From the IMG/VR virus record IMGVR_UViG_2609459792_000007: DNA of 64,000 nt. One strand, given 5' to 3'. The translations under genes were made by a program, and so were the position numbers. Position 1 is the stretch's first letter, and each line of letters begins with the position of its first letter. The notes below the pieces were generated by a model, which saw only the letters and a program-made list of their open reading frames with translations, did no database searches and was not told the origin of the DNA. This document shows positions 1-59,310 of this stretch, piece by piece. Source of the DNA: a virus (lineage: Duplodnaviria > Heunggongvirae > Uroviricota > Caudoviricetes).

Positions 1-1160
1 ACTTCATCGGTAAAGATATTGTTTACTTCCACAGCCTGTTCTGGCCTGCCATGCTGGAAGGCAGCAACTTCCGCAAGCCGACCAACCTGTTTGTTCACGG
101 CTATGTGACGGTGAACGGCGCGAAGATGTCCAAGTCTCGCGGCACCTTTATTAAAGCCAGCACCTGGCTGAATCATTTTGACGCCGACAGCCTGCGTTAC
201 TACTACACTGCGAAACTCTCTTCGCGCATTGATGATATCGATCTCAACCTGGAGGATTTCGTTCAGCGCGTGAATGCCGATATCGTGAACAAAGTGGTTA
301 ACCTGGCCTCCCGTAATGCAGGCTTTATCAACAAGCGTTTTGACGGCGTGCTGGCAAGCGAACTGGCTGACCCGCAACTGTACAAAACCTTTACTGATGC
401 CGCTGAAGTGATTGGCGAAGCATGGGAAAGCCGCGAATTTGGTAAAGCTATCCGTGAAATCATGGCATTGGCTGACCTGGCTAACCGCTATGTCGATGAA
501 CAGGCTCCGTGGGTGGTGGCGAAGCAGGAAGGACGCGATGCCGATCTGCAGGCGATTTGCTCTATGGGCATTAACCTGTTCCGCGTGCTGATGACGTACC
601 TGAAGCCGGTACTGCCGAAACTGACTGAACGTGCAGAAGCATTCCTGAATACAGAACTGACCTGGGATGGTATCCAGCAACCGCTGCTGGGCCATAAAGT
701 GAATCCGTTCAAGGCACTGTATAACCGCATCGATATGAAGCAGGTTGAAGCACTGGTGGAAGCATCCAAAGAAGAAGTGAAAGCCACAGCCGCACCGGTA
801 ACTGGCCCACTGGCTGACGACCCGATTCAGGAAACTATCACCTTTGACGACTTCGCCAAAGTTGACCTGCGCGTGGCGCTGATTGAAAACGCAGAGTTTG
901 TAGAAGGTTCTGACAAACTGCTTCGTCTGACGCTGGATCTCGGTGGTGAAAAGCGTAATGTCTTCTCAGGCATCCGTTCCGCTTATCCAGATCCACAGGC
1001 ACTGATTGGTCGTCACACCATTATGGTGGCTAACCTGGCACCACGTAAAATGCGCTTCGGTATCTCCGAAGGCATGGTGATGGCTGCTGGCCCCGGCGGG
1101 AAAGATATCTTCCTGTTAAGCCCGGATGCTGGTGCTAAACCAGGCCACCAGGTTAAGTAA
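1..1160 (+). CDS. metG: methionyl-tRNA synthetase, C-terminal about 385 aa (5' end outside window)
   Basis: Frame is open from position 3; translation ([20 protein letters not shown]...KMSKSRGT...GAKPGHQVK) is recognisable as enterobacterial MetG including the KMSKS motif; stop TAA at 1158-1160. Confidence 0.95.
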
Positions 1161-1180
1161 TTAAACAACCTCTGTTCGCA

Positions 1181-1207
1181 ATGCCCGGCAACACGCTGGG
1201 CATTTTC
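1181..1207 (+). terminator. putative hairpin terminator downstream of metG
   Basis: atgccc-ggcaacacgct-gggcat stem-loop followed by tttc. Confidence 0.4.
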
Positions 1208-1243
1208 ATATAGACACAATCCCTTCTGATTTACGCATACCCT

Positions 1244-1258
1244 AAAACAATTTGTTTT
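1244..1258. promoter_or_regulatory. operator-like palindrome AAAACAA-T-TTGTTTT (family A)
   Basis: Perfect 15-bp dyad; overlaps presumed -35 region upstream of GATAAT at 1274-1279. Confidence 0.5.
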
Positions 1259-1293
1259 CTGCCTTTTGTTAATTGAGATAATAAGCCACATAA

Positions 1294-1309
1294 GAAAACA
1301 AATTGTTTC
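1294..1309. promoter_or_regulatory. operator-like palindrome GAAAACAAATTGTTTC (family A)
   Basis: Dyad between a GATAAT -10-like hexamer and the RBS of the 1322 gene. Confidence 0.55.
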
Positions 1310-1321
1310 GGAGTGGTTGAA

Positions 1322-1621
1322 ATGTTGAACATTACCCAAGCCTACCAGGTGGCATTGATCAGCTCATCTCATACATCAGAGGAAGATGCTCGCCGATTCA
1401 TGATCGCAAGCAATGAGCTGGATTGGGTTTCACAAATTGAGTACGGTTGCATTGTCCACGCCGGGTTACAGGACGATGACTGGAAAGATGAGTTGCGTCG
1501 ATATGGTATATCCGAGGGCGCGATTGCGAACATTCAGAAAGTACTTGATGTAGGCTTTGACTCTGTACATTTTGATTGTGGCGCACCGGTCGTTGAAGGG
1601 CTTGAGTGCTGGCAATGGTAA
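1322..1621 (+). CDS. hypothetical small acidic protein
   Basis: ORF with RBS ggagtgg 6-8 nt upstream of ATG 1322 (ORF track starts at 1313); preceded by family A operator. Confidence 0.6.
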   Translation: MLNITQAYQVALISSSHTSEEDARRFMIASNELDWVSQIEYGCIVHAGLQDDDWKDELRRYGISEGAIANIQKVLDVGFDSVHFDCGAPVVEGLECWQW

Positions 1622-1657
1622 TCCGGCAATCGCTTCATACTAGATAACGGAGAATTT

Positions 1658-1843
1658 ATGCTTAAAGAAGACTCATATCTACTAAAGGCGCTTGAAATGC
1701 GTGGCGTTGAACCTACAGTGAAAAACGCTCACGATATCTACCTTCAGTTTTCGCCAGAGCTGAAACAGCTCATAAATAAATATGGAGTGAATGACTCCAG
1801 CGTCAAAGCCATGATAGATGATGAATTAGACCATCTCATCTAA
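1658..1843 (+). CDS. hypothetical protein (61 aa)
   Basis: ORF with RBS acggag 7 nt upstream of ATG. Confidence 0.5.
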   Translation: MLKEDSYLLKALEMRGVEPTVKNAHDIYLQFSPELKQLINKYGVNDSSVKAMIDDELDHLI

Positions 1844-1859
1844 CCAAACCGTTGATAAT

Positions 1860-2790
1860 GGCGGTCACAATTTGATTCTTTTCTATAAGAATCCGTTGAT
1901 CGCCACTACTCCCCTTCCATACCCGCAATCACATCCTTAAATATCAATAAGTTATAGTTGTTTATACAATCAAGAAAACAACTGAATAACAGATCAACGA
2001 AACGTCAACGCTTTCACCCGATTTGGTCTAAAAAATTGACGTTTTCACACATCACTGCTTATACCCGTAATTCTACGCAGCAGACAGCGCCACAGCGTCC
2101 AATTTTCACCACAGACGACCCAACACACTACCAACAAAAACACACGCTCAAAATCGTTCCCGTTGCGTTACATAACCATATAAACAACTTATTTTCAGGC
2201 ATAACAAAACAACTAAATAACACATATGCCATTACCAAAAACAACCAACCTCTTTATGGCAGGCTACCGAAAAGACCCACCTCTTCTTCCCAGGCTACCG
2301 GACAACCAACCTAACTTTCACAGGCAATCCGAAAACATTCATACGCGCGATACCCACGATACGCCATTCCCCAAATAGCGAAGCACACCAGAATCACTGA
2401 AACCCCCAACGAAGCCTGTAACCGCAAGGTTTCTCTCAATCCCAAAAGACACGAAACAGAACAATCACGGGAAACGCCATTACCCAACACACGAATAACT
2501 ACAAAAGCCTTTCACGCACTCCAGACAAACACAATAACGAAAGGAATCGCCCACCTGCCATTACTCCATATACGGAGAAGAACAATCACCAAAACGACGA
2601 GAACCCCCCATAGAAGAACCACCGCAAAACGAACGAAACCACATACACCGACAGATAAAACAACACACCCAATTCACCAACAGAAATAGTCGTCGTATAG
2701 AACGTTCTGGAAGGAGTGAGCATTAACGCCTATAGAGAGGTTGAGACAGATAAAACACGAAGAAAACACAACATGTATAGCGAAGAAGCC
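1860..2790. repeat. A+C-rich, G/T-poor non-coding tract (strong strand compositional skew)
   Basis: About 900 bp dominated by A and C on the plus strand; only a low-complexity ORF (1958-2314) with no RBS; recurring caggctaccg words. Confidence 0.6.
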
Positions 2791-2899
2791 AGGTATGTAT
2801 AAGTGGGGAGGGAAGGAGGGGTGTCGCCTCCTTTTTCGTATTTATTCAACTCCTGATTTTATCCCCCGTAACACCCCTACGGTCAGCCTTCGGTCCATA

Positions 2900-3035
2900 C
2901 AGGGAAAAGGTTGCATCCCGCTACAGAAACGGCTGGGTTGCCTTCGGGGAACGGCTGGAGGTTTTCAGGGAAACGGTCGAGTTGCCTGTGTGGATTTCGG
3001 GAGAAGGCTCGATGCCGGTTCAGGAACGGTGGCGT
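2900..3035. repeat. iteron-like direct repeats G(G/A)AACGG(C/T), about 22-bp spacing, 5 copies
   Basis: cagaaacggctgg 2924, gggaacggctgg 2947, cagggaaacggtcg 2967, gggagaaggctcg 2998, caggaacggtggc 3021. Confidence 0.6.
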
Positions 3036-3364
3036 ACCGGTATAGCGAGAGGGAGAGTTGCGGCTACCCACCTGTAATGTGCGGGAAGAAGAGAGGCGCT
3101 CACGTAGGCGGACTTGCTTACCGCTGGATTCCCTCTGAATGCCCAGCTACAGCGTAATTGTGCCAGACAGTCAGCGGGTCACAATCGATTTCAGTAGGTT
3201 TTCGGGGAGGGGATTATTCTGCCCACCAGCCATCTTCGGCCACTAAATCAGAATAATGTAAAAAGTGTACTCGATACTGAACCTGAAAACTCACTGCCAA
3301 AACAACATTCACCGGAATAAAATCCTTTTTAGCCTGTGCGTTATTGCGATAATAACACCAACGA

Positions 3365-3380
3365 GAAAACAAGTTGTTTA
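3365..3380. promoter_or_regulatory. operator-like palindrome GAAAACAAGTTGTTTA (family A)
   Basis: Sits 10 nt downstream of GATAAT (3345-3350) and just upstream of RBS aagga. Confidence 0.55.
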
Positions 3381-3391
3381 AGGATTGCTTT

Positions 3392-3721
3392 ATGTTTGCA
3401 AATATCGACATCAACCAAATCAAGAAATTAACTCAAAAAGAGTTTGATCAGTTTTATGAGTTAGAAGGTTGGTCTTCCACTCTGATCAATTCGCGGTGGG
3501 TGCTTGAGCTGATGACTCGTGATGACGCACCTGCTTTGATGATCAGCGACCTGGGTGAAGATGCTGACTTTATGGATATGAGCGAATTTTGTGTGGACAC
3601 ATACAACCGCAGCCAGAAGTACTACTTCACATGCGATAGCGAAAATGACGTGATTTCTAAGGTCTATCTTCACCTCGTCCAGCATTGGGACGTTCAGGAG
3701 TTTCTTGAAGTATTCGAGTAA
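3392..3721 (+). CDS. hypothetical small acidic protein
   Basis: ATG 3392 with RBS aagga at 3380-3384; ORF track alternative start 3374 lies inside the operator; D/E-rich translation. Confidence 0.6.
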   Translation: MFANIDINQIKKLTQKEFDQFYELEGWSSTLINSRWVLELMTRDDAPALMISDLGEDADFMDMSEFCVDTYNRSQKYYFTCDSENDVISKVYLHLVQHWDVQEFLEVFE

Positions 3722-3757: not shown

Positions 3758-3848
3758 TATAGCCGCAGGGAAGAACCTGCATATCGCTCATGCACCTGAT
3801 CAATATGCTTTGTAGCCGTTTTCTTACTGGTATTATTTACGCCATTGA

Positions 3849-3864
3849 GAAAACAAGTTGTTTA
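3849..3864. promoter_or_regulatory. operator-like palindrome GAAAACAAGTTGTTTA (family A)
   Basis: Downstream of TATTAT -10-like hexamer, immediately before RBS acggag. Confidence 0.55.
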
Positions 3865-4751: not shown

Positions 4752-4768
4752 GATAACAATTTGTTTTC
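4752..4768. promoter_or_regulatory. operator-like palindrome GATAACAATTTGTTTTC (family A)
   Basis: Same word plus tctgcc flank as the copy at 1244. Confidence 0.5.
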
Positions 4769-5501: not shown

Positions 5502-5518
5502 GAAAACAACATGTTTAC
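5502..5518. promoter_or_regulatory. operator variant GAAAACAACATGTTTAC (family A)
   Basis: Preceded by GATAAT (5485-5490) plus tacaccaac spacer as at 3345 and 5970. Confidence 0.5.
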
Positions 5519-5848: not shown

Positions 5849-5986
5849 ATGACCATCCTGTTTCCCGCAGGCTAAAAACACCAACCTCTTACCTCCAGGC
5901 AACCGACAAACCCACCTGTTCCCGTCCGGCTACCGCAACTTTCCACTTTGACGCCTTATTCGTACAACGATAATTAACACCAACAA

Positions 5987-6002
5987 GAAAACAATTTGTT
6001 AT
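5987..6002. promoter_or_regulatory. sigma70-like promoter plus family A operator GAAAACAATTTGTTAT
   Basis: TTTGAC (5946-5951), 16-nt spacer, GATAAT (5968-5973), then the dyad, then RBS aagga. Confidence 0.6.
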
Positions 6003-6021
6003 TTACGATAAGGAATTAATC

Positions 6022-6504
6022 ATGAATTTTATCGCTACTGTAAACGCACCCGCACATGGCAATATCGCTGTAACGTTCTCTGACATTGAAAAACGAGTAC
6101 TTGGTGCATGGCGCGACAATGAGACGGTAGAACTGTCAGCACAAGAAAAATGCATTATTGCACGCGACATCATTGGCAATCGTCGTTACTCGCGGGTATT
6201 TGAGAAAGCGTATGTGGTAAATTCTGGGTTCGGAACGTTCGTCTTTCCGGTGCGCTCCGGGCGATTCTGCCAGTCCAAGCTGATTGAGTTCGCTACGCAG
6301 ATTTCTGTCTGGATTAAAACTCAATCGTCGTTCAAATTTTCCGACGATGAAGCAGTATCGCAGGGGATGCGGATCGCCAACAATGCGATTAAATGCAAAA
6401 ACATTACGTATACCGCTGGCGTTGACACATGGAAACTGTTTTGCGCTAACTTTATGCTGAATGTATACGCAAGCAACCGCATCCACATCCTTGATGGCGT
6501 GTAA
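6022..6504 (+). CDS. hypothetical protein (160 aa)
   Basis: ATG with RBS aaggaa; preceded by promoter/operator module. Confidence 0.65.
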   Translation: MNFIATVNAPAHGNIAVTFSDIEKRVLGAWRDNETVELSAQEKCIIARDIIGNRRYSRVFEKAYVVNSGFGTFVFPVRSGRFCQSKLIEFATQISVWIKTQSSFKFSDDEAVSQGMRIANNAIKCKNITYTAGVDTWKLFCANFMLNVYASNRIHILDGV

Positions 6505-6513
6505 CTGAGAAGA

Positions 6514-6535
6514 GGGCCAGAAACGGCCCTTTCTC
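6514..6535 (+). terminator. hairpin terminator
   Basis: gggcc-agaaac-ggccc followed by tttctc. Confidence 0.6.
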
Positions 6536-6553
6536 TATAGCCACCAGCTGCCG

Positions 6554-6633
6554 CAGGGAAATTTTCAGAAACGGCGAGGAACGTATTCATGAGCCGACGG
6601 GAAACGGCCAGGATTTTTTCGGGAAACGGCTGC
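6554..6633. repeat. second iteron-like cluster TTTTC(A/G)GGAAACGGC
   Basis: cagaaacggcgagg 6566, cgggaaacggccagg 6598, cgggaaacggctgc 6620; last two exactly 22 bp apart. Confidence 0.55.
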
Positions 6634-7088
6634 ATTCGCCTTTATGTAGAAAAAACATCGGGAAGCTGGTGGAATCCAACCAGCGGTTGTCGGACAGGCG
6701 AGCGGGGAAAATTATGATGACTTTCGTCGCCTGATACATCCAGATTTCTTTCGTAGCGTAATCACATACGTGATTAAGTGGTGTGATTATGTGAAAAATC
6801 ACGCGCACATAATACGCGAGCGGACACAGAACAACACAAAATGCCGATCCGCGCCGACAAATAAACGCGGATCACATAGCAAGACTAAAAGCCAATGATT
6901 AACCATACGCTATAGCGCAATATAACGCGTTTTAAGCGCGTTAATGTGTTAAGTAATGGGTATGTACTGGCAAGGATATAAAAGCGCGTCTATGGCGTTA
7001 TTTTGGCGCTTATTTTTATGTTGTTGGAGTGAGTTAAAGACAATAAAAAACGCCCCATCATGGGCGGGTTATGGGGGGAGTATTGAAA

Positions 7089-8870: not shown

Positions 8871-9395
8871 TCAAAAAGGCAAAATTCGTTCAACCCAATC
8901 GAACAAAACAACTATTTTTCTACCGTTCTCGACACGTAGTGTAACCTGACAAGCATCTGCGCCTGCTGACACCCCCTCAATTTCACGGCCATCCGCCATG
9001 TACACCCTTATAGATTTGTTTGCTTTGTAGGCTTGGTTGCAAATTGCAAAAAAATCGCGGCGTGATGGCCGATTATCGACATAATCAGGGTGAACTGTTA
9101 GTCGACCTTTGAAATCGTGAGCGATACTGTCAACCACACCTGATTCAATTGTACTAATGCGTTCAAGTGGGAGCCTTATACGATTTTCTTTGTCAAAAGG
9201 GGCTGGGCAAAGGTCAACTTTGTTACGAGATGGCATGAGGCCATAAACGTACATGCAAAACGCCTGGCCATCTTCGAGAGTGACCCTTACAGGAATTTGT
9301 TCTCTGCGCCAGAACATCAGTAGTTTTTCAACGTTAGTGTAATCTCGCGGCCAGAGTTCAGCTTGGATACCGTAGGTAATATCTTTGGTTGTCAT
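8871..9395 (-). CDS. hypothetical protein
   Basis: ORF; likely start MTTKD at 9395 overlapping upstream stop. Confidence 0.5.
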   Translation of the reverse strand: MTTKDITYGIQAELWPRDYTNVEKLLMFWRREQIPVRVTLEDGQAFCMYVYGLMPSRNKVDLCPAPFDKENRIRLPLERISTIESGVVDSIAHDFKGRLTVHPDYVDNRPSRRDFFAICNQAYKANKSIRVYMADGREIEGVSAGADACQVTLRVENGRKIVVLFDWVERILPF

Positions 9396-9399
9396 GTCA

Positions 9400-9822
9400 T
9401 CACAGAGTTGTTGGCAGAATGTCGATGTCACCAGAATTGCTGGTGAACACCCTGAACGCTTTTGTGTCTCCATTCTTCAGAGTCGTTTCTCGCTCTTGAC
9501 GAGCGGGGTTTAGAGCACATAAACCTGCACCTTCAAGAGATGCACCCACAATTAATTCTCCGGCATTTAAATGGAAAGTCGCTTTTTCGCCTGTAGCCAG
9601 TTTTGCGACAGTTTCGCCATTGATGAAAATGGAAGCATCACATCCAGCTCCTACAAAACCTGTGTCTCTCATTACCACCAACGTAGCTGGCGCTGCGCTT
9701 TGATACTTGAACACTTTGGCCTGCGGTGCTGGTTTGGCGTCATGGATTGATATTGGACGTGATTGGCACGCGGTAAGCATCAACACTGGTAACGTTAGTA
9801 GAGGGAGAAGCGAGTATTTCAT
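9400..9822 (-). CDS. putative lipoprotein
   Basis: MKYSLLPLLTLPVLMLTAC: signal peptide with lipobox LTAC. Confidence 0.6.
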   Translation of the reverse strand: MKYSLLPLLTLPVLMLTACQSRPISIHDAKPAPQAKVFKYQSAAPATLVVMRDTGFVGAGCDASIFINGETVAKLATGEKATFHLNAGELIVGASLEGAGLCALNPARQERETTLKNGDTKAFRVFTSNSGDIDILPTTL

Positions 9823-10171: not shown

Positions 10172-11731
10172 CTAATCTCGTTTCAGAACTCCAAAATCGA
10201 ATGCTCCATCAATAGGCAATACACCTTCTGCAAAGCCAGGTGTGGTGTCGATGATGTGTTTTCGCTCATAAGAGTGAGACAACAGGTATTTGTTGCTAAT
10301 GTCAATGAAATCAGTGATAAAACACACGTTTGCCTGATTTTTTTTGGCTCGTAAGCCACGACCGACACGCTGTCTCATTTCAACTTCTGCTTTCCCACCA
10401 CCAGCAAGAATGACCGCACCAACGCTTGGCACATCAACACCAACATCCAGAATAGTCGAGCCTATTAAAACATCTATTTCACCAGACGCTAAACTATTCA
10501 GCTTTGCTTGCCTTGTCGTCTGGTTAGATTCCCCATAGATGAAATCAACTTTAAGACCTGACTCCTTCATCATCTCCATCAGGATTTGCCCGTGGCGTTT
10601 AAGACGAACCAGAGTCATGCAGTTGAGTGAATGTTGCTTATAAAGCAATGCCTCGCGCACTATGGCCTCGTTACGTCCCAAATTATACACGATCCCCAAC
10701 TGATAAGCCTTTTGGTAGGCGGTGCCCATACCAACTCTAAAATTGAGGTGTTTGTTGGCAAGTTCGGCCTTGATTCTGGCCTCGTCTGGCTTGTAGGCAA
10801 CTTTATGATAAAGGAAGTACGGCTTTGCCAGAATGCCTCGATCAATCAGGTACTTTTCTGTGACTTTAATTTCAATTCGCCCGGCCACCGCCATCAGGCG
10901 CATGTTGGCTTCCGTCGAATCCTTCATGAACGGCGTGGCTGTAAGCGCCAGACGATAGTCTGCGTTCACACATAATCTGGCAATGTCATAGAAATTAGAG
11001 CCTGAAGACTCATGCGCTTCTTCCAGAATAAGCAGAGACACACTTGAAAGGAAGCGTTTCACCAACTCCCGACGTTTGAGGTGGTAGCTCTTTTTATCTG
11101 GTGTTGCATCGCGTGGTGGTTCTTCAAGGAAACTTGCCAGAGTTTGAACTGTAGCGACGTTGATATGTCGTGATACCTGGAACTCACCCGAGCCAATGAC
11201 TCCAACCTTTTGGCCCTTTAACCACGGTTCGCCATTTTCGGCGCGGTAGTCGATGGATCTCTGGAAGTTTTCGGCCATTTGAAACATCAGAACAGAGCGG
11301 GTTGTTAAAAATAATGTCATTCGACCGATACGTGCAGCTGCTTTGCAGGCAACGTTAGATTTCCCGCCACCAGTAGCGATCTGCGCAATCATCATTCCCT
11401 CTCGAACCAGTGTTTCCACAGTCTGATCCTGATACGCATAATCAGGATTGTATGGGAATGGGTTAACCGCCGGATTTGGTTTACCAAGCGCCGGGGCTTT
11501 GTCTTTGCGGATATGAACACATTTGATGCCCGCCTTGTTCAAGTTCGCCGCTACAGGCTTGGCAAAGCCAGCAGGGAACGAGTTTTTACTCCAGTTGAAC
11601 ATCGTGCTTGTGCCCTTCCAGTCGCCAGTCTCGACTTCGTAGCTCAACATTTGCTGCACCAGTTGCTTTACCTTGTCATCTGCGCCAGAAATAAGCGCAT
11701 TTACTGCGTTAGATACAATCCGAACAGTCAT
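10172..11731 (-). CDS. superfamily 2 DNA/RNA helicase
   Basis: Walker A-like TGGGKS, motif II LILEEAH (DEAH-type), C-terminal helicase-domain-like region. Confidence 0.75.
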   Translation of the reverse strand: MTVRIVSNAVNALISGADDKVKQLVQQMLSYEVETGDWKGTSTMFNWSKNSFPAGFAKPVAANLNKAGIKCVHIRKDKAPALGKPNPAVNPFPYNPDYAYQDQTVETLVREGMMIAQIATGGGKSNVACKAAARIGRMTLFLTTRSVLMFQMAENFQRSIDYRAENGEPWLKGQKVGVIGSGEFQVSRHINVATVQTLASFLEEPPRDATPDKKSYHLKRRELVKRFLSSVSLLILEEAHESSGSNFYDIARLCVNADYRLALTATPFMKDSTEANMRLMAVAGRIEIKVTEKYLIDRGILAKPYFLYHKVAYKPDEARIKAELANKHLNFRVGMGTAYQKAYQLGIVYNLGRNEAIVREALLYKQHSLNCMTLVRLKRHGQILMEMMKESGLKVDFIYGESNQTTRQAKLNSLASGEIDVLIGSTILDVGVDVPSVGAVILAGGGKAEVEMRQRVGRGLRAKKNQANVCFITDFIDISNKYLLSHSYERKHIIDTTPGFAEGVLPIDGAFDFGVLKRD

Positions 11732-15102: not shown

Positions 15103-15144
15103 GAAAACAAGTTGGTTAGCAGATGCAGTAAACAAGTTGTTTTA
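15103..15144. promoter_or_regulatory. two family A operator copies upstream of terminase operon
   Basis: gaaaacaagttggtta (15103-15118) and taaacaagttgtttta (15129-15144), then hairpin gagcgc-atggac-gcgctc. Confidence 0.5.
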
Positions 15145-45807: not shown

Positions 45808-45823
45808 GAAAACAAGTTGTTTC
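45808..45823. promoter_or_regulatory. family A operator GAAAACAAGTTGTTTC upstream of partition operon
   Basis: Dyad between promoter-like sequence and RBS of ParA-like gene. Confidence 0.55.
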
Positions 45824-48737: not shown

Positions 48738-48753
48738 GAAAACAATTTGTTTA
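48738..48753. promoter_or_regulatory. family A operator GAAAACAATTTGTTTA upstream of helicase gene
   Basis: Dyad followed by RBS aaaggaaag. Confidence 0.55.
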
Positions 48754-52233: not shown

Positions 52234-52265
52234 TCTCTCCGCGCGTCGTTTTTTTACGCAAACAA

Positions 52266-52285
52266 TGATAGGTAAGTACAAGATT
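52266..52285. promoter_or_regulatory. family B motif GATAGGTAAGTAC
   Basis: Ends about 12 nt before the ATG of the 52290 gene. Confidence 0.45.
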
Positions 52286-52289
52286 ATTT

Positions 52290-52772
52290 ATGGCGATAGT
52301 TGTGAAAGCTGATTTGTCAAAAATCCCCTCTATTTCAGGAAATAATGGTTATTCACTTCGTTGTGAGGAAGTAAAGATAAACGGTGAGTCGGCATATTGC
52401 AGTTACTCCGTTTGCCAGCACACCATTCTTGCCTTCAAAGAAAACCGTCTTCCTCGAACTTCTTTCCAGTCGTGCGCAACCGCTATTAAAGCAGGCAAAT
52501 GCAAGGCGTTAAAAATGATGGTTGAAGAGATTCGTAAAGGAGAATCTCTGTATTTCGAAGATATGACCGCACTCATTAAGGAGGTTGAAGAACGGAATAA
52601 ACAAGCCAGAACTATAAAACGAAAACGTGACAGTGTAACGATTAATAGCATGGTTAAGAAGAGCGCCACATCACAAACAGCGATCACTGACGTGTATGCG
52701 GCGTTGCTTGAAGAAACAACAAAAGAAACACATGAGCAAATCGATCAACATATGGAGGCAAAACAACAATGA
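52290..52772 (+). CDS. hypothetical cysteine-containing protein
   Basis: ORF between primase and ligase genes. Confidence 0.5.
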   Translation: MAIVVKADLSKIPSISGNNGYSLRCEEVKINGESAYCSYSVCQHTILAFKENRLPRTSFQSCATAIKAGKCKALKMMVEEIRKGESLYFEDMTALIKEVEERNKQARTIKRKRDSVTINSMVKKSATSQTAITDVYAALLEETTKETHEQIDQHMEAKQQ

Positions 52773-54091
52773 AAAAGTTGATCGCACTTAAGCATAAGCT
52801 GGACGAAATGAAAGCTATGGGAACCAATGCAAAAAAAGAGGCATTGGCCAACATGGATGACTTTGAACAAAGCATGGTTTCATTGATGCTCAACCCTTTC
52901 ATCCGTTTTGGGGTAAAGAAATACAAAGTGGCAGAGCCGCTTAGTGAGTCCGTCCCAAGTGACGAAAAAGCCATTGATGTACTGAATAAGCTGGCCTCTC
53001 GCGAGCTGACGGGGAACGCAGCAATAGTTGCTGTTGAGTCTATCGTAGCGTCAATGTGCGCCGATGGGCAGGACGTGTTCCGTCGTTTCCTCTTAAAAGA
53101 CCCGAAAGCAGGTGTTGGGATTAGCCTATGCAACAAGGTTTTTGAGAATCCCATTCCGAAATTCGAGGTGCAGCTGGCGTCACCGTATAAAGAAAAAGGC
53201 GACAAATACCCCTTCAAGCCAAATCCTAAAGCAAAATGGCCGATGATTGGCAGTCTTAAGCTCGATGGTTTGCGAGTAATTTGCGAGGTTATTGTTGACG
53301 AGGAAGAGGTTAACTTCCTTTCTCGTACTGGTAATCCAATCACGTCTCTCGATCACCTAAAGCCAGCAATGCTCGAATTAGGCAAACTTTCAGGCCACAA
53401 ACACATCTTCTTCGATGGTGAAGGAACAGCCGGTTCATTTAACCAGTCCGTATCTGCATTGCGCAAAAAGAACGTGCAGGCAATTGGCGCTATTTATCAT
53501 GTTTTCGACTTCTTCCTACCGGAATGGCGGGCACAGGCTAAATCCAAAGAGTATGCAAAGACAGGTATGAAGCTGAAAGAGCGCCTGGCTATGCTGGTGG
53601 CGTTGTTCAAAAACGATCGCAGTGAAGGCTACGGACAAGACATTCACCTGCATCCGTTCTATATCATCCATAGCCACGAAGATTTCATCGAACGCTTTAT
53701 GAAACGCCTGGACGATAACGAAGAAGGGGAGATGGGCAAAGATCCGAACTCTGTTTACGAGTTTAAACGTACCCGCAGCTGGTGGAAGTTAAAAGACGAA
53801 GATTCAGAAGATGGTGAAATTATCGACTTTGAGCCGGGCGACCCGGACTCTGGTTTTGCCAACACACTTGGAAAAATTGTTATTCGTCTTGAAAACGGCG
53901 TCATCGTTCGTGCGAGCGGCATTAAGCATAAATATCTGGACGAGATCTGGAACAACAAAGAGAAGTACCGTGGTCGTATTGTTGAGGTTCATTGTCACGA
54001 GAAAACGCCGGATGGCAGCTTACGCCACCCACGACTGAAATGGCCGCGTTGCTTACGCGATACAGAAGATCGAATCGGAGATAAAGAATGA
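52769..54091 (+). CDS. ATP-dependent DNA ligase
   Basis: Adenylation motif KLDGLR (SLKLDGLRVICEV) and downstream nucleotidyltransferase-like motifs. Confidence 0.8.
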   Translation: MKKLIALKHKLDEMKAMGTNAKKEALANMDDFEQSMVSLMLNPFIRFGVKKYKVAEPLSESVPSDEKAIDVLNKLASRELTGNAAIVAVESIVASMCADGQDVFRRFLLKDPKAGVGISLCNKVFENPIPKFEVQLASPYKEKGDKYPFKPNPKAKWPMIGSLKLDGLRVICEVIVDEEEVNFLSRTGNPITSLDHLKPAMLELGKLSGHKHIFFDGEGTAGSFNQSVSALRKKNVQAIGAIYHVFDFFLPEWRAQAKSKEYAKTGMKLKERLAMLVALFKNDRSEGYGQDIHLHPFYIIHSHEDFIERFMKRLDDNEEGEMGKDPNSVYEFKRTRSWWKLKDEDSEDGEIIDFEPGDPDSGFANTLGKIVIRLENGVIVRASGIKHKYLDEIWNNKEKYRGRIVEVHCHEKTPDGSLRHPRLKWPRCLRDTEDRIGDKE

Positions 54092-54267
54092 TGCTCGGCT
54101 GGATGATTGCATTTTTAGCGGTTGGTTTTTTAATCGGTATTGTGGTGATGTCCAGTTGCATCAATGACTACATTAAAAGCGGTGTTATAGAACGACGCGG
54201 TCGTATTTATCGCATTGTAGAAATAACCCACACAGTGAAGGAGATTAAGGATGATCGTATTAAGTAA
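54088..54267 (+). CDS. small membrane protein (59 aa), not in ORF track
   Basis: ATGA overlap with ligase stop; N-terminal TM helix; C-terminal RIYRIVEIT resembles the ORF at 54463. Confidence 0.35.
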   Translation: MMLGWMIAFLAVGFLIGIVVMSSCINDYIKSGVIERRGRIYRIVEITHTVKEIKDDRIK

Positions 54268-54466
54268 GCGGGAGAAGGAAACGCTTCATGAAATCAGTAA
54301 GTGGCCGGAGTTCCCTGAGTACTGGAAGCCTAAAACGCGGGCTAAGTTAGAGCGGTTAGGGTTGGTTGCAAACGTTTCTGAAACGTGGTGTTCGGCCAAC
54401 TACCAGTTAACTGATAAAGGGAAAGTATTGCTACAGCAATTAGTAGAATCAGGAGCGTTAAAATGA
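54251..54466 (+). CDS. hypothetical protein (71 aa)
   Basis: ORF with RBS gaaggag. Confidence 0.45.
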   Translation: MIVLSKREKETLHEISKWPEFPEYWKPKTRAKLERLGLVANVSETWCSANYQLTDKGKVLLQQLVESGALK

Positions 54467-54615
54467 TTCCATACATCTCATTAGCTTTTATGGGTGGCTT
54501 CCTTATTGGCTTCGGCATCTGTCGTGATTTAATTAAGCAGGAACTTAAAACCAAAACACTGTGCATCGGAAAGCGTGTGTATCGGGTAGTTCATGAAACA
54601 AAGGTTAGAAAATGA
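54463..54615 (+). CDS. small membrane protein (50 aa), paralogue-like, not in ORF track
   Basis: RBS aggagcg; starts with the ATGATTCCATACATC word; TM helix then RVYRVVHET. Confidence 0.35.
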   Translation: MIPYISLAFMGGFLIGFGICRDLIKQELKTKTLCIGKRVYRVVHETKVRK

Positions 54616-54902
54616 GCAATTTAACTTCTTGGGACTGGTGGTTGGTCACCTATTTCTTAGCGGCTGGAGTAGCATTCGCCTTTTACGTAGGTCAGTTAGT
54701 CGTAAAACTGTTGCTGATTAAATTTGCTAGTCATAAACGTATCGATGATGGTCTGTGGCGTCTTGGCACCTTGGTGGAAACTCGCTACGGGCAACTTAAG
54801 GAGAACGAAACCATTACTATCCAAGCGAAACGATTCACTGCCACCATCACAAGAACACCTAGTCGTAGAGTGGCCTTGATCAAAAAAGTCACAACCGAAT
54901 AA
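54612..54902 (+). CDS. membrane protein (96 aa)
   Basis: N-terminal TM helix WWLVTYFLAAGVAFAFYV. Confidence 0.45.
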   Translation: MSNLTSWDWWLVTYFLAAGVAFAFYVGQLVVKLLLIKFASHKRIDDGLWRLGTLVETRYGQLKENETITIQAKRFTATITRTPSRRVALIKKVTTE

Positions 54903-54910
54903 AAATACAA

Positions 54911-54933
54911 TGATAAGTATTTACTTACTTATC
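54911..54933. promoter_or_regulatory. family B motif GATAAGTA-N7-ACTTATC
   Basis: Inverted GATAAGT arms at the start of the structured region before the tRNAs. Confidence 0.45.
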
Positions 54934-55681
54934 TTATATGTATAAGATGACTTTGTTTTCGTTGAGACGCGACTGTTTGAACTTAAATACAAGTGCAAAC
55001 GAAGAAGTCTATCTGGCAGTAGCCTAATAAGCCAAACACCAGCGAGGTCAGTTTCCAGCCTCGTTACCGAAATGGGACACACTGAGCGAGTGTGATTGCA
55101 GAACGCAGGAGGGAACATTCATGTTCCCTCCGATGAAGTAACAGAATGGGCGGTTGGTATATTTTCAACTCCATATGACTCCCGGATTCTTAGCCACTGA
55201 CCGCCCATTCTGTTACGTCATTTTGTTCAATTATGTCGTTTATACTGGGTTAAAAAGCGGCGACGTAGCCCGGCTGGTATGGTCAGCCAGCACACAACGT
55301 TGAGGCCATTACATTTTTATCAATTCTAAGGTTCTATTCACAGAGATACCGGCGAGCGTTGATATGTAACATGTTGGGCAAACATTCAATCGGAGTAGTG
55401 GCCTCAACGTTGTGAAAATAGGATAGTTGTGTAGGTTTAACCACTGTTGCCATTGGTACCTGTTTTCACAACAAATGATTCCATACATCACATTGTATAA
55501 ATTACAAAGTAGGTGCTGTCCTCAGAAACATCATCTACTTAAATAATTTGCCTTCTACTATTGAGCGAAGTCGAAAGCGTCTGGCACTAACGAAAAGTGC
55601 AAGTAGCGGTGCGTTTCCTGGCAGAAACTAACACCGCCGCGATTGGCACTGTTGAGTAATAAATACTGGCAGTGCTGAATT

Positions 55682-55756
55682 GATGGTGTAGCTCAGCGGT
55701 AGAGCAGTTGGCTGTTAACCAACTGGTCGGTGGTTCGAATCCACCCACCATCGCCA
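55682..55756 (+). tRNA. tRNA-Asn (anticodon GTT)
   Basis: Manual cloverleaf: acceptor gatggtg/caccatc, D arm gctc-agcggta-gagc, anticodon loop ctGTTaa, T loop ttcgaat. Confidence 0.85.
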
Positions 55757-55761
55757 ATTTA

Positions 55762-55848
55762 GGGGAGTTAGTCCGTAGAGGTAGCGGGGTAGACTGTAAA
55801 TCTACTGTCATGGAGACTCGGGTGGTTCGACTCCATCACTCCCCACCA
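55762..55848 (+). tRNA. tRNA-Tyr (anticodon GTA), long variable arm
   Basis: Acceptor ggggagt/actcccc, anticodon stem-loop gtaga-ctGTAaa-tctac, long variable arm, T loop ttcgact, 3' CCA. Confidence 0.7.
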
Positions 55849-55852
55849 AATT

Positions 55853-55928
55853 GCCGGTTTAGCTCAGTTGGTAGAGCGCCTGCCTTGTAAGCAGGATGTC
55901 AGCGGTTCGAGTCCGTTAACCGGCACCA
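55853..55928 (+). tRNA. tRNA-Thr (anticodon TGT)
   Basis: Acceptor gccggtt/aaccggc, D arm gctc-agttggta-gagc, anticodon loop ctTGTaa, T loop ttcgagt, 3' CCA. Confidence 0.8.
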
Positions 55929-56152
55929 ATACAACGATAAGATCATTACGGTTAATCGTCGTTCATGTGCACAATGACTGGTCGAAAGGTAGTGATCTTA
56001 CCGTTGTGGTGGATTCGCAGACTGATGCGATAGCTTTCTTGGATGTTAGGGAAATGCGGCCGCAAATCTTCCCTTTCGCGAGCGGTGATCGTCCGTAGTC
56101 CTAATTGGCTGCACCGTATGCCGGAGATTCAGTACCGGCCACCACAACGGCC

Positions 56153-56239
56153 GGAGAGTAGGGAGCATGGTGCTCAAGCGGTCTTGAAAACCGTCCCATT
56201 GCGCAAGCGATGATGGTTCGATTCCATTACTCTCCGCCA
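56153..56239 (+). tRNA. tRNA-Ser (anticodon TGA), long variable arm
   Basis: Acceptor ggagagt/actctcc, anticodon stem-loop gcggt-ctTGAaa-accgt, long variable arm, T loop ttcgatt, 3' CCA. Confidence 0.7.
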
Positions 56240-56396
56240 GACACAGCGTTGAGCGGTTTGGCCTTTTAATCAACTCGATTAAGACTCCGCTAACATAAAC
56301 CAGACCGCTCAACGCTGTGATAGACAATTACGGCAGACGTTCTTAACCATAGCTTGCTAACATCCTAGCAACACTTTTTTTCAGCGCAAAATTCAA

Positions 56397-56423
56397 AGGG
56401 GCTTCGGCCCCTTTTTTGCAACT
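56397..56423 (+). terminator. rho-independent terminator after tRNA cluster
   Basis: aaaggggc-ttcg-gcccctttt followed by ttgc. Confidence 0.85.
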
Positions 56424-56460
56424 GAAAGAGTCAAGTCTACGAACTTTGTAGGGAGAAATA

Positions 56461-56811
56461 ATGACCAGCAAAGAGAACACACCACTAAAAGTCACCCCTG
56501 AACACATTGAACAACTCATTCAAAGTGAACATTATTTCACTGCATATGATGCCAGCCACGGGGATAACTTCATCTCTGTTTACAATTCAAAAACAGATAT
56601 CGACAAAGGTCATGAGTCGTTAAAACTCTTAACGTTCTGCGTTATGGTTCTCAAAAATGGATATACCGTAACGGGAAAATCTGCGTGCGTAAGACCAGAA
56701 ATCTTCAACTTTGATGTTGGTCGTGAGTACGCTCGAAAAGATGCTATCGATCAAATCTGGCCCCTGGAAGGCTATCTCCTGAAGCAAAAGTGGCATGAGG
56801 CAAAGCAATGA
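56461..56811 (+). CDS. hypothetical protein (116 aa)
   Basis: ORF with RBS gggagaaataATG; coupled to glutaredoxin gene. Confidence 0.5.
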   Translation: MTSKENTPLKVTPEHIEQLIQSEHYFTAYDASHGDNFISVYNSKTDIDKGHESLKLLTFCVMVLKNGYTVTGKSACVRPEIFNFDVGREYARKDAIDQIWPLEGYLLKQKWHEAKQ

Positions 56812-57053
56812 CGATCACTATCTACGGACGAGATAACTGCTCATACTGCAAACGTGCGGTCGAGCTGGCGAAGCAACTAAAGGGACATGGCTACGGTGAT
56901 TATGAGTACATAGACATCACCACTGCCGGTATCGACAAGAAAAAACTAAGTGAAATTGTTGGTAAACCGGTAGAGACTATCCCCCAAGTACTGATCGATG
57001 GTCAACCGATTGGCGGATACACAGAACTGGCTGCATACGTCAGCACCCTCTGA
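56808..57053 (+). CDS. glutaredoxin-like (NrdH-type) redox protein
   Basis: CSYC active-site motif near N-terminus; 81 aa. Confidence 0.75.
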   Translation: MTITIYGRDNCSYCKRAVELAKQLKGHGYGDYEYIDITTAGIDKKKLSEIVGKPVETIPQVLIDGQPIGGYTELAAYVSTL

Positions 57054-57131
57054 TTTTAACGGCTCACAGGAGCCGTTTTTATTACCACCAAACTCACTCC
57101 CATTTCCCTTAAAATTCAAAAAACAACGTCA

Positions 57132-57164
57132 AAATGATTCCATACCTACTATGTATGGAATCAT
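57132..57164. other. candidate site-specific recombination site: perfect 13-7-13 inverted repeat
   Basis: AATGATTCCATAC-ctactat-GTATGGAATCATT, 100 bp upstream of tyrosine recombinase gene. Confidence 0.55.
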
Positions 57165-57217
57165 TAGTGAAAATGAGTTACTTTTACTCTTGATCCTATA
57201 AGAATCTATGCCTAATA

Positions 57218-57237
57218 TACTGTTTACTTATACAGTG
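57218..57237. promoter_or_regulatory. LexA-box-like sequence upstream of recombinase gene
   Basis: TACTGT-ttacttat-ACAGTG fits CTGT-N8-ACAG; 27 bp upstream of ATG 57264. Confidence 0.45.
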
Positions 57238-57263
57238 AATCGGCGTAACTCGGTGATTGTCAT

Positions 57264-58367
57264 ATGAAAAATAGCTTTGACAGAGCACGCGCTGCGGAGA
57301 ACACCTCAAAAGAGGCGATTGAGTATCTCGAAAGAGCATCTCAAATGCAGGCCGTTATGATCTCGCAGGTTAGCATTGATATGAGATTCTCGGACGCATT
57401 CATGTTATTCACTCGCTTATCTCTGCTGATAACCAGACGTCGGCCAGAGATCGCTGTTCATTGTATTTTGATACATGTTTTGCCGCACATTGCCGATGTA
57501 AAAGTAAGTGACATTAATAGGTTCATGGTGAACCAGCTGGTCAACCCACTAATACTGGATGGCAAAATTGTTATGGGCCGCCGCGTTTTCTCTCTGATGA
57601 AACAGTTCCTTAGCTGGTGCGCCTTCCAGGGGATGATAGACGTGTCACCGTTAAACGATATGTCACTAAACAAAGTTGCCGGTGGCGCAAAGCCCACACC
57701 TCGCGAGCGGAAGCTGACCGACGCAGAGGTATGGGTGTTCTGGAATATATGGGACTACTTCAATGTGTGCGCTGGTACAAAATGGGCGGCCAGGCTGTGT
57801 CTTGTATCAGCAAGACGACCTGACGAAGTACTGCGGGCTAAAAAAAGTGAGTTCAATCTTAAGCGTGGGGTTTGGAATCAAGGCAAGAGAAACAAGTCAG
57901 CACGTGAGCATTCGCTGCCTTTAAGCACATTAATGCGCACATGCATTGAAGAGTTGTTCGAATACGGTAAAGACAGCCAGTGGCTCGTGCCTTCGAATAA
58001 AAAAATCGGGAAAGACCTTCCTATGTCTAAAGTGGCAATAGCCCAGGCATTACGTCGTATTCTGGAACGACCAGAACTGATGGAGCTTGAGCCATTTACA
58101 CCCCGAGATTTGCGCCGTACTGCGCGTAGTTACTTCCCAGCATTAGGCATAAGCCAGGAGGTATCACGCAAAATCATGAACCACAGTCTTGAGGGGATAG
58201 ATCGGGTCTACGACCGGCACGATTATATGGACGAGATGCGAGACGCCTTAGAAAGTTTCTCGACGTACATCGCATCAATCGTAGAGCAACCGGATTTAGA
58301 CGAAATTGACCACAAATTCAAGGGAGATCGTCTATCAACAGAGCTTATTCGTGTAAATTTTTCATAG
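57264..58367 (+). CDS. tyrosine recombinase / integrase family protein
   Basis: C-terminal catalytic-domain-like residues (ARRPDE, DLRRTARSY, MNHS, RVYDRHDY). Confidence 0.7.
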   Translation: MKNSFDRARAAENTSKEAIEYLERASQMQAVMISQVSIDMRFSDAFMLFTRLSLLITRRRPEIAVHCILIHVLPHIADVKVSDINRFMVNQLVNPLILDGKIVMGRRVFSLMKQFLSWCAFQGMIDVSPLNDMSLNKVAGGAKPTPRERKLTDAEVWVFWNIWDYFNVCAGTKWAARLCLVSARRPDEVLRAKKSEFNLKRGVWNQGKRNKSAREHSLPLSTLMRTCIEELFEYGKDSQWLVPSNKKIGKDLPMSKVAIAQALRRILERPELMELEPFTPRDLRRTARSYFPALGISQEVSRKIMNHSLEGIDRVYDRHDYMDEMRDALESFSTYIASIVEQPDLDEIDHKFKGDRLSTELIRVNFS

Positions 58368-59212: not shown

Positions 59213-59310
59213 CCCCTCTTCTCCCTGCGCGAATGGCTTAGTTCCCTGTTCGCGCAGTGCTACATTAAACACACTAGTAAATAATTTGTTTTCATAACAA
59301 AGGATTAGCC

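Follow-up and report, generated by a model that had tools for sequence, protein, structure and literature searches.

RNA that is unfolded, C-rich, G-poor and free of ribosomes is the textbook substrate of Rho. The oriF and oriG origins of phage T4 are reportedly R-loops, according to the Kreuzer laboratory. In phage P1, operators of the repressor C1 are dispersed and include the C1-controlled P53-repL/oriL lytic replicon. For cluster A mycobacteriophages, prophage origins based on RNA have been described (PMC7157519). Here we compare with such systems a gene-free region in a stretch of viral DNA of 64,000 nucleotides (IMG/VR record IMGVR_UViG_2609459792_000007), which is referred to as the window and belongs to an SSU5-type phage-plasmid.

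Across 1150-3400, the window is 96.6% identical to Escherichia phage Cyrano (= pLF82); identities are 93% with PhiR41_1, ~71% with Klebsiella phage-plasmids and 67% with Salmonella phage SSU5, and the element has a size of ~108 kb. SSU5-type phage-plasmids, including S. Typhi pHCM2, pLF82/Cyrano and many Klebsiella and E. coli resistance plasmids, are widespread in clinical Enterobacteriaceae, and their lytic control and replication are almost unstudied. In the literature searched on these phage-plasmids we found no account of the region described here. An initial annotation of the window had pointed to a non-coding tract at 1860-2790 with an extreme excess of A+C over G+T on the plus strand and had proposed that leftward transcription would yield a G/U-rich RNA as in R-loop-primed origins. 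We favour, tentatively, a different reading in which the tract forms the untranslated body of a non-coding unit that reads rightward, is wired to the repressor and could act as a giant Rho-loading barrier.

Skew of the tract and properties of its RNA

We computed A+C on the plus strand in 200-nt windows. The mean of the whole window is 0.504, and outside 1700-2900 the values have a standard deviation (sd) of 0.041 and a maximum of 0.625. The tract peaks at 0.78, about 6.7 sd above the mean, and is the sole such region in 64 kb; in the remaining 45 kb of Cyrano A+C never reaches 0.66. The extreme skew and its uniqueness within the element are thus confirmed. Its extent had been put at 850-900 bp, and here the annotation holds only in part: the interval 1860-2790 has an A+C fraction of 0.676, and the strongly skewed core comprises only ~660 bp. 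Likewise the A+C bias is real, but a plus strand that is "almost entirely A and C" does not describe a core in which 28% of the bases are G or T.

2041-2700, plus strand: A+C-rich core with 72% A+C and a C/G ratio of 2.5; longest C>G, G-poor run and least structured plus-strand RNA

The core consists of 40% A, 33% C, 13% G and 15% T (GC skew -0.44, AT skew +0.43, G+C 45%). If a C>G, G-poor run is defined by C minus G ≥0.15 and G ≤0.18 in each 80 nt, the core is by far the longest one in the window (660 nt; the runner-up has 180 nt), and it contains 14.2 YC dinucleotides per 100 nt compared to 9.6 (sd 1.6). Folded in 150-nt pieces, plus-strand RNA of 2000-2749 has minimum free energies of only -12.7 to -19.3 kcal/mol, whereas the window averages -37.4 (sd 7.5); no other RNA in 64 kb is as little structured. 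Minus-strand RNA of the tract folds ordinarily (-29 to -41 against -35.1, sd 6.8), as its G/U-rich sequence can form G·U pairs. The tract shares three features with Rho utilization (rut) regions: it is C-rich and G-poor over far more than the ≥~80 nt expected, its RNA is free of structure and it is untranslated. To our knowledge, an A+C versus G+T bias has no meaning for duplex DNA, from which we infer that the selected property belongs to a single strand.

These properties also bear on the R-loop proposal. We compared the energies of RNA:DNA hybrids with those of the DNA duplex (hybrid minus duplex, nearest-neighbour energies per 100 nt, ~1,280 windows). For a leftward transcript, the values across the tract run from about -4.5 to +13 kcal/mol per 100 nt; most are positive, and the hybrid is no better than that of ordinary sequence (average +1.2, sd 5.0), because rU:dA pairs are weak and the RNA contains 40% U. 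In the rightward direction the values within the tract are -4 to -8 kcal/mol per 100 nt and lie near the window mean of -2.6 (sd 5.0). A hybrid more stable than the duplex over the tract, the mark of an R-loop, was hence not found leftward and was unexceptional rightward. At 2900-3100, to the right of the tract, the rightward hybrid reaches -12.6 to -17.5 kcal/mol per 100 nt, the second most favourable value in the window. The R-loop proposal is consequently unsupported by hybrid energies in its leftward form and is possible in a rightward form with the hybrid at 2900-3100.

For leftward priming speak the non-template GC skew of +0.44, a classic R-loop correlate, an RNase H gene in the element, and a sequence on the minus strand that resembles an ops element, (T/C)CGGTAGCCTG, present twice at a distance of 31 nt (2260-2269 and 2291-2300). 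CGGTAGCCTG agrees in 9/12 positions with GGCGGTAGnnTG, which we take to be the ops consensus of RfaH; the match was noticed post hoc, and an ops-like match with eight specified bases has a probability of ~0.05 of occurring by chance in the region. However, the hybrid is mostly less stable than the duplex and at or above the window average, the minus-strand RNA folds like any other, no conserved leftward promoter into the tract was found, and to the left of the tract the RNA would run antisense to the rightward accessory genes. Every promoter-like or terminator-like signal of the region points rightward. Together with the poor leftward hybrid this makes a leftward G/U-rich R-loop the least supported orientation, and we regard leftward transcription, as the annotation had suggested it, as very unlikely to prime replication here.

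Coding potential, conservation and selection

No reading frame is conserved across eight representative homologues. Lineages disagree on where open reading frames of at least 45 codons lie, on which strand and in which frame, and the length of most indels is not divisible by three. PGAP predicted no coding sequence in the tract region in almost all of 838 plasmids, and the annotated open reading frames CYRAN_103/104 and SSU5_108/109 disagree in strand and position between records. The annotation was therefore right that the tract holds no credible open reading frame, and we reject a protein-coding gene. With Rfam 15 at gathering score, the only matches in the window were tRNAs, and a permissive search of 1600-3500 returned E-values of 2.2 or worse.

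In an alignment of 14 homologues, all 14 have 60-80% A+C over the same ~650-800 nt. Identity of the tract between the window and its SSU5, Klebsiella or Cronobacter relatives is 0.60-0.68, whereas 4-fold degenerate sites of two conserved genes just downstream reach only 0.37-0.48. First and second codon positions of these two genes are mostly at 0.72-0.74, with 0.56 for one gene against Klebsiella. Judged by this comparison, constraint on the tract appears almost as tight as on protein-coding positions. As identity is far above that of the flanking 4-fold sites, sequence as well as composition must be selected. The 255 invariant columns of ~694 contain 72.5% A+C compared to 67% in the variable ones, which, taken with the purifying selection, rules out a neutral skew driven by mutation.

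We therefore consider it extremely improbable that the tract has no function and is the by-product of strand-biased deamination, with the G+T-rich strand often single-stranded, or a decayed gene. The polarity of A+C against G+T would fit deamination as in vertebrate mitochondrial DNA, and close pairs of homologues show an ordinary, transition-rich spectrum. Still, the tract evolves far slower than neighbouring synonymous sites, its invariant columns are the more A+C-rich ones and it has no trace of a reading frame; a mutational origin of the skew was rejected in view of the purifying selection. The substitution spectrum itself is uninformative, because saturation of the alignment mimics A<->C exchange.

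The tract seems, from the sequences searched, to be confined to the SSU5 phage-plasmid family. The stretch 1150-3400 has matches in 241 of 5,426 complete E. coli genomes, all in plasmids and none in chromosomes, and the gene-free region of 1.55 kb that contains the tract (1844-3391) is present in 838 PLSDB plasmids from Klebsiella, Escherichia, Enterobacter, Salmonella, Citrobacter, Cronobacter and Shigella. A contig scan for more distant relatives with the most conserved 22 specified bases retrieved four SSU5-type loci only, two of them in Kluyvera genomes and one contig each in a Bacillota metagenome-assembled genome and a Catenulispora assembly. The latter two contigs are probably foreign to those organisms. 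A locus search with a single protein found close relatives only. Partial copies in Klebsiella IncFIB/HI1B plasmids were rejected as a second context, as they are remnants truncated by insertion sequences. In pKP4 and pJNQH491-1 (5900-6742), a fragment of ~840 bp extends from the left repeat block to the fourth GCCATTAC box, ends at the end of an insertion sequence and adjoins a type I restriction-modification locus; we take it for a probable leftover of recombination.

One plasmid carries a disrupted tract. In NZ_CP083480.1, a 111.6-kb E. coli plasmid from a blood isolate, IS1 is inserted at the equivalent of position ~2580. Since this plasmid persists in circulation, an intact tract is dispensable for plasmid maintenance.

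Transcription across the tract in lysogens

Misson et al. re-analysed RNA-seq data of strain LF82 carrying Cyrano and list log2(5+FPKM) values, where FPKM stands for fragments per kilobase per million (PMC9928086, S1 Table). The library seems to be strand-resolved, because the paper mentions antisense transcripts (PMC9928086). CYRAN_102, immediately upstream of the tract, has values of 5.6-6.0 in LB (50-64 FPKM) and 9.0-9.2 in B6 (~590 FPKM) (PMC9928086). CYRAN_103, which corresponds to window positions ~1958-2314 on the plus strand, is at the floor of 2.32 (FPKM 0) in both LB replicates and at 2.7-4.3 in the other conditions, with ~1.5-2.5 FPKM in B6 (PMC9928086). CYRAN_104 (~2745-3157) has values of 2.6-4.7 (PMC9928086). 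In macrophages, where early genes are up ~10-fold, the next downstream gene CYRAN_105 reaches 7.5-7.8 and CYRAN_103 log2 values of 3.4-3.6 (PMC9928086). Judged by these per-gene counts, which come from another strain, plus-strand RNA drops more than 100-fold within ~110 nt of the stop codon of CYRAN_102. A pattern scan between CYRAN_102 and CYRAN_103 found no intrinsic terminator, only a palindrome without a tail.

The genes that flank the tract are all rightward. In close relatives, annotation places a T4-like replication and recombination module and accessory genes on its left; on its right follow small rightward genes, then a leftward operon with repressor and SF2 helicase, then terminase and structural genes. 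The neighbouring small proteins all belong to PHROG families without known function. The left-side genes depend on the lineage (metG/DUF5983, DUF1380, a GIY-YIG nuclease or insertion sequences) and the non-coding region is constant, which fits an insulator at a module boundary.

In the barrier reading, the unit would be part of the conserved core of SSU5-type phage-plasmids and wired into the lytic repressor-operator network. Its plus-strand transcript, nearly unfoldable, C-rich, G-poor and free of ribosomes, would be loaded with Rho. In the lysogen the tract would then serve as a one-way polarity barrier at which read-through from the accessory genes on the left (metG, apbC, morons) is terminated and the RNA degraded, so that the early lytic genes on the right would be insulated from left-side transcription. 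After removal of the repressor, the unit's own candidate promoters would fire. Composition, conservation, the missing reading frame, a lack of structure confined to the plus strand and, in per-gene counts, a loss of plus-strand RNA without a recognizable intrinsic terminator are observations; from these we infer Rho as the agent and the firing of the promoters on derepression.

Promoters, operators and boundaries of the unit

The signals that delimit the proposed unit are the following.

1849-1904: left repeat block, with CCGTTGATAA at 1849-1858 and the inverted pair GGCGGTCA / TGATCGCC
1874-1893: palindrome of the left block, GATTCTT-TTCTAT-AAGAATC (7-6-7 layout)
1893-1904: CCGTTGATCGCC of the left block, with an invariant GATC
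1960-1983, plus strand: promoter-leader-like unit GTTTATACAATCAAGAAAACAACT, resembling the -10, leader and half-operator of neighbouring early genes
1992-2041: opposed TCAACG/GTCAAC and GTTGAC boxes around a conserved spacer (GATTTGGTCT)
2036-2065, plus strand: candidate sigma-70 promoter TTGACG-18-TATACC, directed into the tract; its -10 is without the final T
2181-2196: operator-type palindrome TAAACAACTTATTTTC (AAACAAGTTGTTT in SSU5-type relatives), with a half-site ~24 bp to the right
2810-2836, plus strand: terminator-like hairpin, followed by TTTTTCGTATTTATT in the window (pattern scan)
3326-3380, plus strand: right end of the gene-free region, marked by the canonical extended -10 promoter (TGCGATAAT) of the next gene (3392-3721) with its A/C-rich leader and operator

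Between 1849 and 2041 there are five CGTTGAY boxes in opposed orientation. The iteron-like cluster that the annotation had placed next to the tract is in fact present on both sides, as these boxes and palindromes on the left and as six G-rich repeats at 2900-3045 on the right. The blocks TTTCTATAAGA and CGTTGATCGCC are invariant in the 14 homologues; as the sequence never varies, the left inverted repeats provide no covariation evidence for or against structure. The unit at 1960-1983 was recovered with a profile of nine promoter-leader units (nhmmer, E=0.013), and its AAGAAAACAA..AATAACA is invariant. The hexamers TTGACG and TATACC of the candidate promoter at 2036-2065 are invariant or nearly so in the 14 homologues. 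A consensus scanner missed this promoter because it required T at position 6 of the second hexamer.

The operator site in the tract is invariant in homologues as well (nhmmer, E=0.02). It contains one of 13 copies of the 13-bp palindrome AAACAAnTTGTTT, for which only 0.45 copies are expected in the window.

AAACAAnTTGTTT palindrome sites: 1245-1257, 1296-1308, 2182-2194, 3367-3379, 3851-3863, 4754-4766, 5504-5516, 5989-6001, 15105-15142, 45810-45822, 48740-48752, 59279-59291

Nine of the 13, in early and late regions alike, separate a -10-like hexamer from a start codon. Most copies follow, at a distance of 10-13 nt, an extended -10 (TGnGATAAT or TAATTA) with an A/C-rich leader and directly precede the ribosome-binding site. 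By analogy with the dispersed P1 C1 operators, we predict that AAACAAnTTGTTT is the operator of the element's main repressor, which is likely encoded at 8871-9473 on the minus strand (phrog_1444).

The hairpin at 2810-2836 exists on the plus strand only, because its stem relies on several G·U pairs. Most of its 10 pairs are kept by one-sided G-C/G-U/A-U changes, with one compensatory change, and the T-run is weak in the SSU5 and Klebsiella lineages. Long-range pairing of the 31-nt repeats of the tract with GGGAAGGAGGGG (2810-2823) in a 14-bp helix was rejected, as it was no better than in shuffled sequences in 14 of 14 lineages.

Such boundaries, with operators between them, would also suit an RNA that is made in the lytic phase. 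The annotation had named a long non-coding RNA and a protein-binding array as alternatives. We keep both as rivals, although plus-strand RNA is essentially absent in lysogens. As a decoy or sponge, an RNA of ~0.75 kb could titrate Rho, Hfq (via ARN repeats) or the G/U-rich seeds of small RNAs such as GcvB R1, or alternatively a phage protein that recognizes A/C-rich leaders of early mRNAs. The extreme lack of structure agrees with this, and the boxes of the tract, ACGCCATTAC..GGAGAAGAAC, resemble part of the leader of one early gene, ACGCCATT..GAGAAAAC (3839-3856). By prediction the RNA would pair very strongly with GcvB R1 (about -32 to -34 kcal/mol), but composition-matched shuffles do equally well, and a GcvB sponge is thus unsupported. 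The RNA has no Rfam match, stays near zero even where early neighbours rise in macrophages and, being free of hairpins and sensitive to Rho, should be short-lived and hence poor as a stoichiometric sponge. Overall, we judge a decoy to be rather unlikely. Even less probable in our view is a bolder form of this idea, in which induction would yield a ~0.75-kb unfolded, C-rich RNA that serves as a trans-acting factor of host takeover, either as a Rho decoy or as a sink for Hfq or G/U-rich small RNAs. As a decoy it might relieve termination on phage DNA by being a poly(C)-like, futile substrate of Rho, and its GCCATTAC and 31-nt boxes would dock a phage protein.

Repeats in the tract and to its right

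Several repeat families occupy the tract and the gene-free DNA downstream of it.

2228-2235, plus strand: GCCATTAC box 1
2363-2370, plus strand: box 2, a variant of GCCATTAC (GCCATTCC)
2476-2483, plus strand: GCCATTAC box 3
2557-2585, plus strand: GCCATTAC box 4 with full downstream half (GCCATTACTCCATATACGGAGAAGAAC), the best conserved copy
2239-2330, plus strand: three tandem 31-nt repeats ACC(A/C)ACCTCTT-N6/7-CAGGCTACCG
2900-3045, plus strand: six G-rich direct repeats C(A/G)GGGAA(A)(C/A)GG(C/T)TGG with a spacing of 21-22 bp and one 31-bp step
3223-3230, minus strand: Chi octamer GCTGGTGG, degenerate in SSU5 but intact in every other aligned relative; as a lone site it might have arisen by chance

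The octamer GCCATTAC occurs seven times in the window compared to 1.7 expected copies, and three of the seven are inside the tract. Including variants, the tract holds four boxes (five in the SSU5 type) at irregular distances of 81-144 bp, the fullest form being GCCATTACTCCATACACGGAGAAGAAC. CAGGCTACCG is found twice in the 31-nt repeats and is invariant. Copies of the 31-nt family (ACCnACCTnTT..C(A/C)GGC(T/A)ACCG type) are also present at 5866-5935, between a terminator and the promoter of the gene 6022-6504. The G-rich family has a second location at 6560-6640, after the terminator of the same gene, where GGGAAACGG is repeated with 22-bp spacing. This second block is flanked by opposed Chi octamers at 6541-6548 (minus) and 6665-6672 (plus).

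The G-rich repeats at 2900-3045 are conserved in SSU5 and, by eye, in Klebsiella, although a repeat finder detected no family at the Klebsiella locus. With six copies they have the size of an iteron-type array (at least four direct repeats of ~17-22 bp). We rejected them as RepA iterons or as an incA-like copy-control array, as the iteron sequences differ: the RepA replicon lies ~33 kb away in Cyrano and has its own 21-bp iterons, CTCTCTATAGTGGAT. A structured RNA in the G-rich region 2840-3300 was rejected as well, since folding was no better than that of shuffles (z = +1.5 and +0.6 for the two strands).

The favourable hybrid at these repeats is the basis for a rightward, transcription-activated or R-loop-primed lytic origin. 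Derepressed transcripts would cross the tract and hybridize in the G-rich 22-bp repeats at 2900-3100, where the hybrid would be processed to a primer or would open the duplex for the phage's own replisome. The energetic rank of this segment argues for such an origin, as do iteron-like repeats, palindromes and repressor operators within 1.5 kb of gene-free DNA. In addition, the element encodes a T4-style gene set with homologues of UvsX/RecA, UvsY, gp32, SbcCD (gp46/47) and RuvC, together with RNase H, Pol III alpha, Pol III epsilon and an SF2 helicase that matches XPB (E=1.4e-13) and T4 UvsW (E=1.5e-8); RNase H, UvsX, UvsY, gp32, gp46/47, Pol III alpha and the UvsW-like helicase resemble the T4 toolkit. 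Silence in lysogens and dispensability for plasmid maintenance are what one would expect of a lytic origin. On the other hand, inspection by eye revealed neither a conserved DnaA box nor a clearly AT-rich unwinding element, an initiator gene is not adjacent, and naked C-rich RNA should be cleared by Rho, a suppressor of R-loops. Inspection of alignments A1 and A2 by eye revealed no conserved site for integration host factor (IHF). The G-rich repeats at 6560-6640 lack a comparable context, the minimum of the cumulative GC skew (3-12 kb) is confounded by gene orientation, and the hybrid advantage lies outside the skewed tract and so leaves the skew unexplained. We therefore regard a rightward origin as unlikely, though worth serious consideration.

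Points against a simple barrier

Several observations weigh against a Rho-loading barrier as the full explanation. Purifying selection acts on the sequence of the tract, though a barrier needs composition only, and the length of the tract and the positions of its boxes are conserved too. A hairpin terminator would insulate far more cheaply. The candidate promoters are weak consensus matches, and the drop in RNA could arise from an unrecognized terminator or from RNA processing at the 1874-1893 palindrome. Moreover, the 31-nt and the G-rich families recur outside obvious transcription units, and the repeat periods are near two and three helical turns, which hints at proteins binding to DNA. A barrier alone cannot account for the conserved sequence and the boxes (four or five of GCCATTAC, three 31-nt repeats, operators), and the tract very likely has a further function that depends on its sequence, in RNA or in DNA.

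If this function resided in DNA, the tract could be an array of protein sites on the duplex that works as a regulatory hub, as a repressor sink or looping element, or as a site of packaging, partition or recombination; the skew would then result from stacking many A/C-rich sites in one orientation. The region holds at least five repeat families (five CGTTGAY, the operator palindromes, three 31-nt repeats, four to five GCCATTAC and six 22-bp repeats), two of them with periods of 31 and 21-22 bp close to whole helical turns and with further copies at 5866-5935 and 6560-6640, and the palindrome 1874-1893 is laid out (7-6-7) like the core site of a tyrosine recombinase, with its 11-mer CTATAAGAATC recurring near the integrase. 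Yet proteins that bind duplex DNA need no A+C/G+T strand bias, the variable columns between the boxes also have 67% A+C, the spacing of GCCATTAC is irregular and no binding protein was found, the small proteins nearby all falling into PHROG families without known function. We assign such an array the same low, but not negligible, probability as a rightward origin.

Further observations on the element

The 11-mer CTATAAGAATC (1882-1892, within the palindrome) recurs at ~57195-57205, ~60 bp upstream of the tyrosine integrase gene (57264-58367), with a chance expectation of ~0.03 for such a recurrence; it may serve as a site for a recombinase or a regulator. Similar direct sequences, each after TATAAG, flank the tract at 1898-1913 and ~2824-2840. 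They are clearer in SSU5 (GATCGCCACTTTCCCC and GATCGCTACTTTCTCC) and in Klebsiella (GATCGCCCCTCTTCCC and GATCGCTCCCTTTCCC), and at least one position changes in parallel between these two lineages. Twin start regions, recombination sites or an old duplication are possibilities.

The first 1,160 bases of the window are the 3' end of a metG copy. In relatives (locus L007), apbC/mrp lies upstream, and host-like metG (methionyl-tRNA synthetase) and apbC/mrp are carried in full length. The T4-style gene set is located at 10172-11731 (minus strand) in the window and at 52241-57404 and 63331-67874 in Cyrano, and three tRNAs are clustered at 55682-55925 of the window. CYRAN_43, a "hypothetical protein" (OV696614 40268-40822) that adjoins the integrase and repressor genes, is the top-expressed Cyrano feature in lysogeny with ~7,000 FPKM, 723 times background (PMC9928086). 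It is absent from the window owing to an indel, where the gap between glutaredoxin (ends at 57053) and integrase (57264) is just 210 bp. CYRAN_43 could be a non-coding RNA or an immunity RNA.

Implications and comparison with known systems

The gene-free region is among the most conserved non-coding features of the family and marks the place where variable cargo meets the early lytic genes. If it contains a Rho insulator, this would explain how expressed cargo can be taken in without leak into the lytic programme, and Rho inhibitors would be predicted to induce these phage-plasmids. If it is instead a lytic origin or the source of a decoy RNA, it would offer a handle for plasmid curing or control. 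Either way, the tract is a clean natural case of selection for unfoldable RNA.

Among described RNAs, CrcZ of Pseudomonas (A-rich CA motifs, Hfq/Crc) and CsrB (GGA motifs, CsrA) also present repeated short boxes in a single-stranded context, and the A/C-rich composition of the tract recalls the CA motifs of CrcZ. In contrast to both, the motifs of the tract differ, with GGA not enriched beyond composition, it has no Rfam match and its RNA is undetectable in lysogens. A takeover RNA would be the RNA counterpart of protein inhibitors of Rho such as P4 Psu.

ColE1 RNA II, T4 oriF/oriG and the mycobacteriophage origins share with this locus a gene-free, promoter-fed region (with candidate promoters here) in an extrachromosomal prophage, a hybrid-prone G-rich stretch downstream, and, in this element, RNase H and T4-type recombination genes. 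Unlike them, the element has a separate RepA/iteron replicon, the tract is hybrid-prone in neither direction, IS1 is tolerated and a role as origin is hypothetical. The 21-22 bp repeats resemble iteron arrays (P1 incA/incC, RepFIB), but no rep gene is adjacent and the sequence differs from that of the element's own RepA iterons. As in the C1 network of P1, one palindromic operator type is found at many early and late promoters (13 sites here) and in a non-coding region, whereas operator sequence and repressor are unrelated and a repL-like gene is absent.

Closest to the barrier that we favour are the rut regions of lambda tR1 and trp t'. Like these, the tract specifies untranslated, C-rich, G-poor and little-structured RNA downstream of an expressed gene, and, judged by per-gene counts, the transcript appears to be lost without a terminator made of a hairpin and a U-tract. 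Unlike a typical rut region of ~70-100 nt, it extends over ~660 nt, about eight times as long, and its Rho dependence is predicted. It also differs in being conserved in sequence, in carrying repeated boxes and operators and in its fixed position at a module boundary throughout the family. If the tract indeed loads Rho, it would represent an unusually large, sequence-conserved form of a known type of element.

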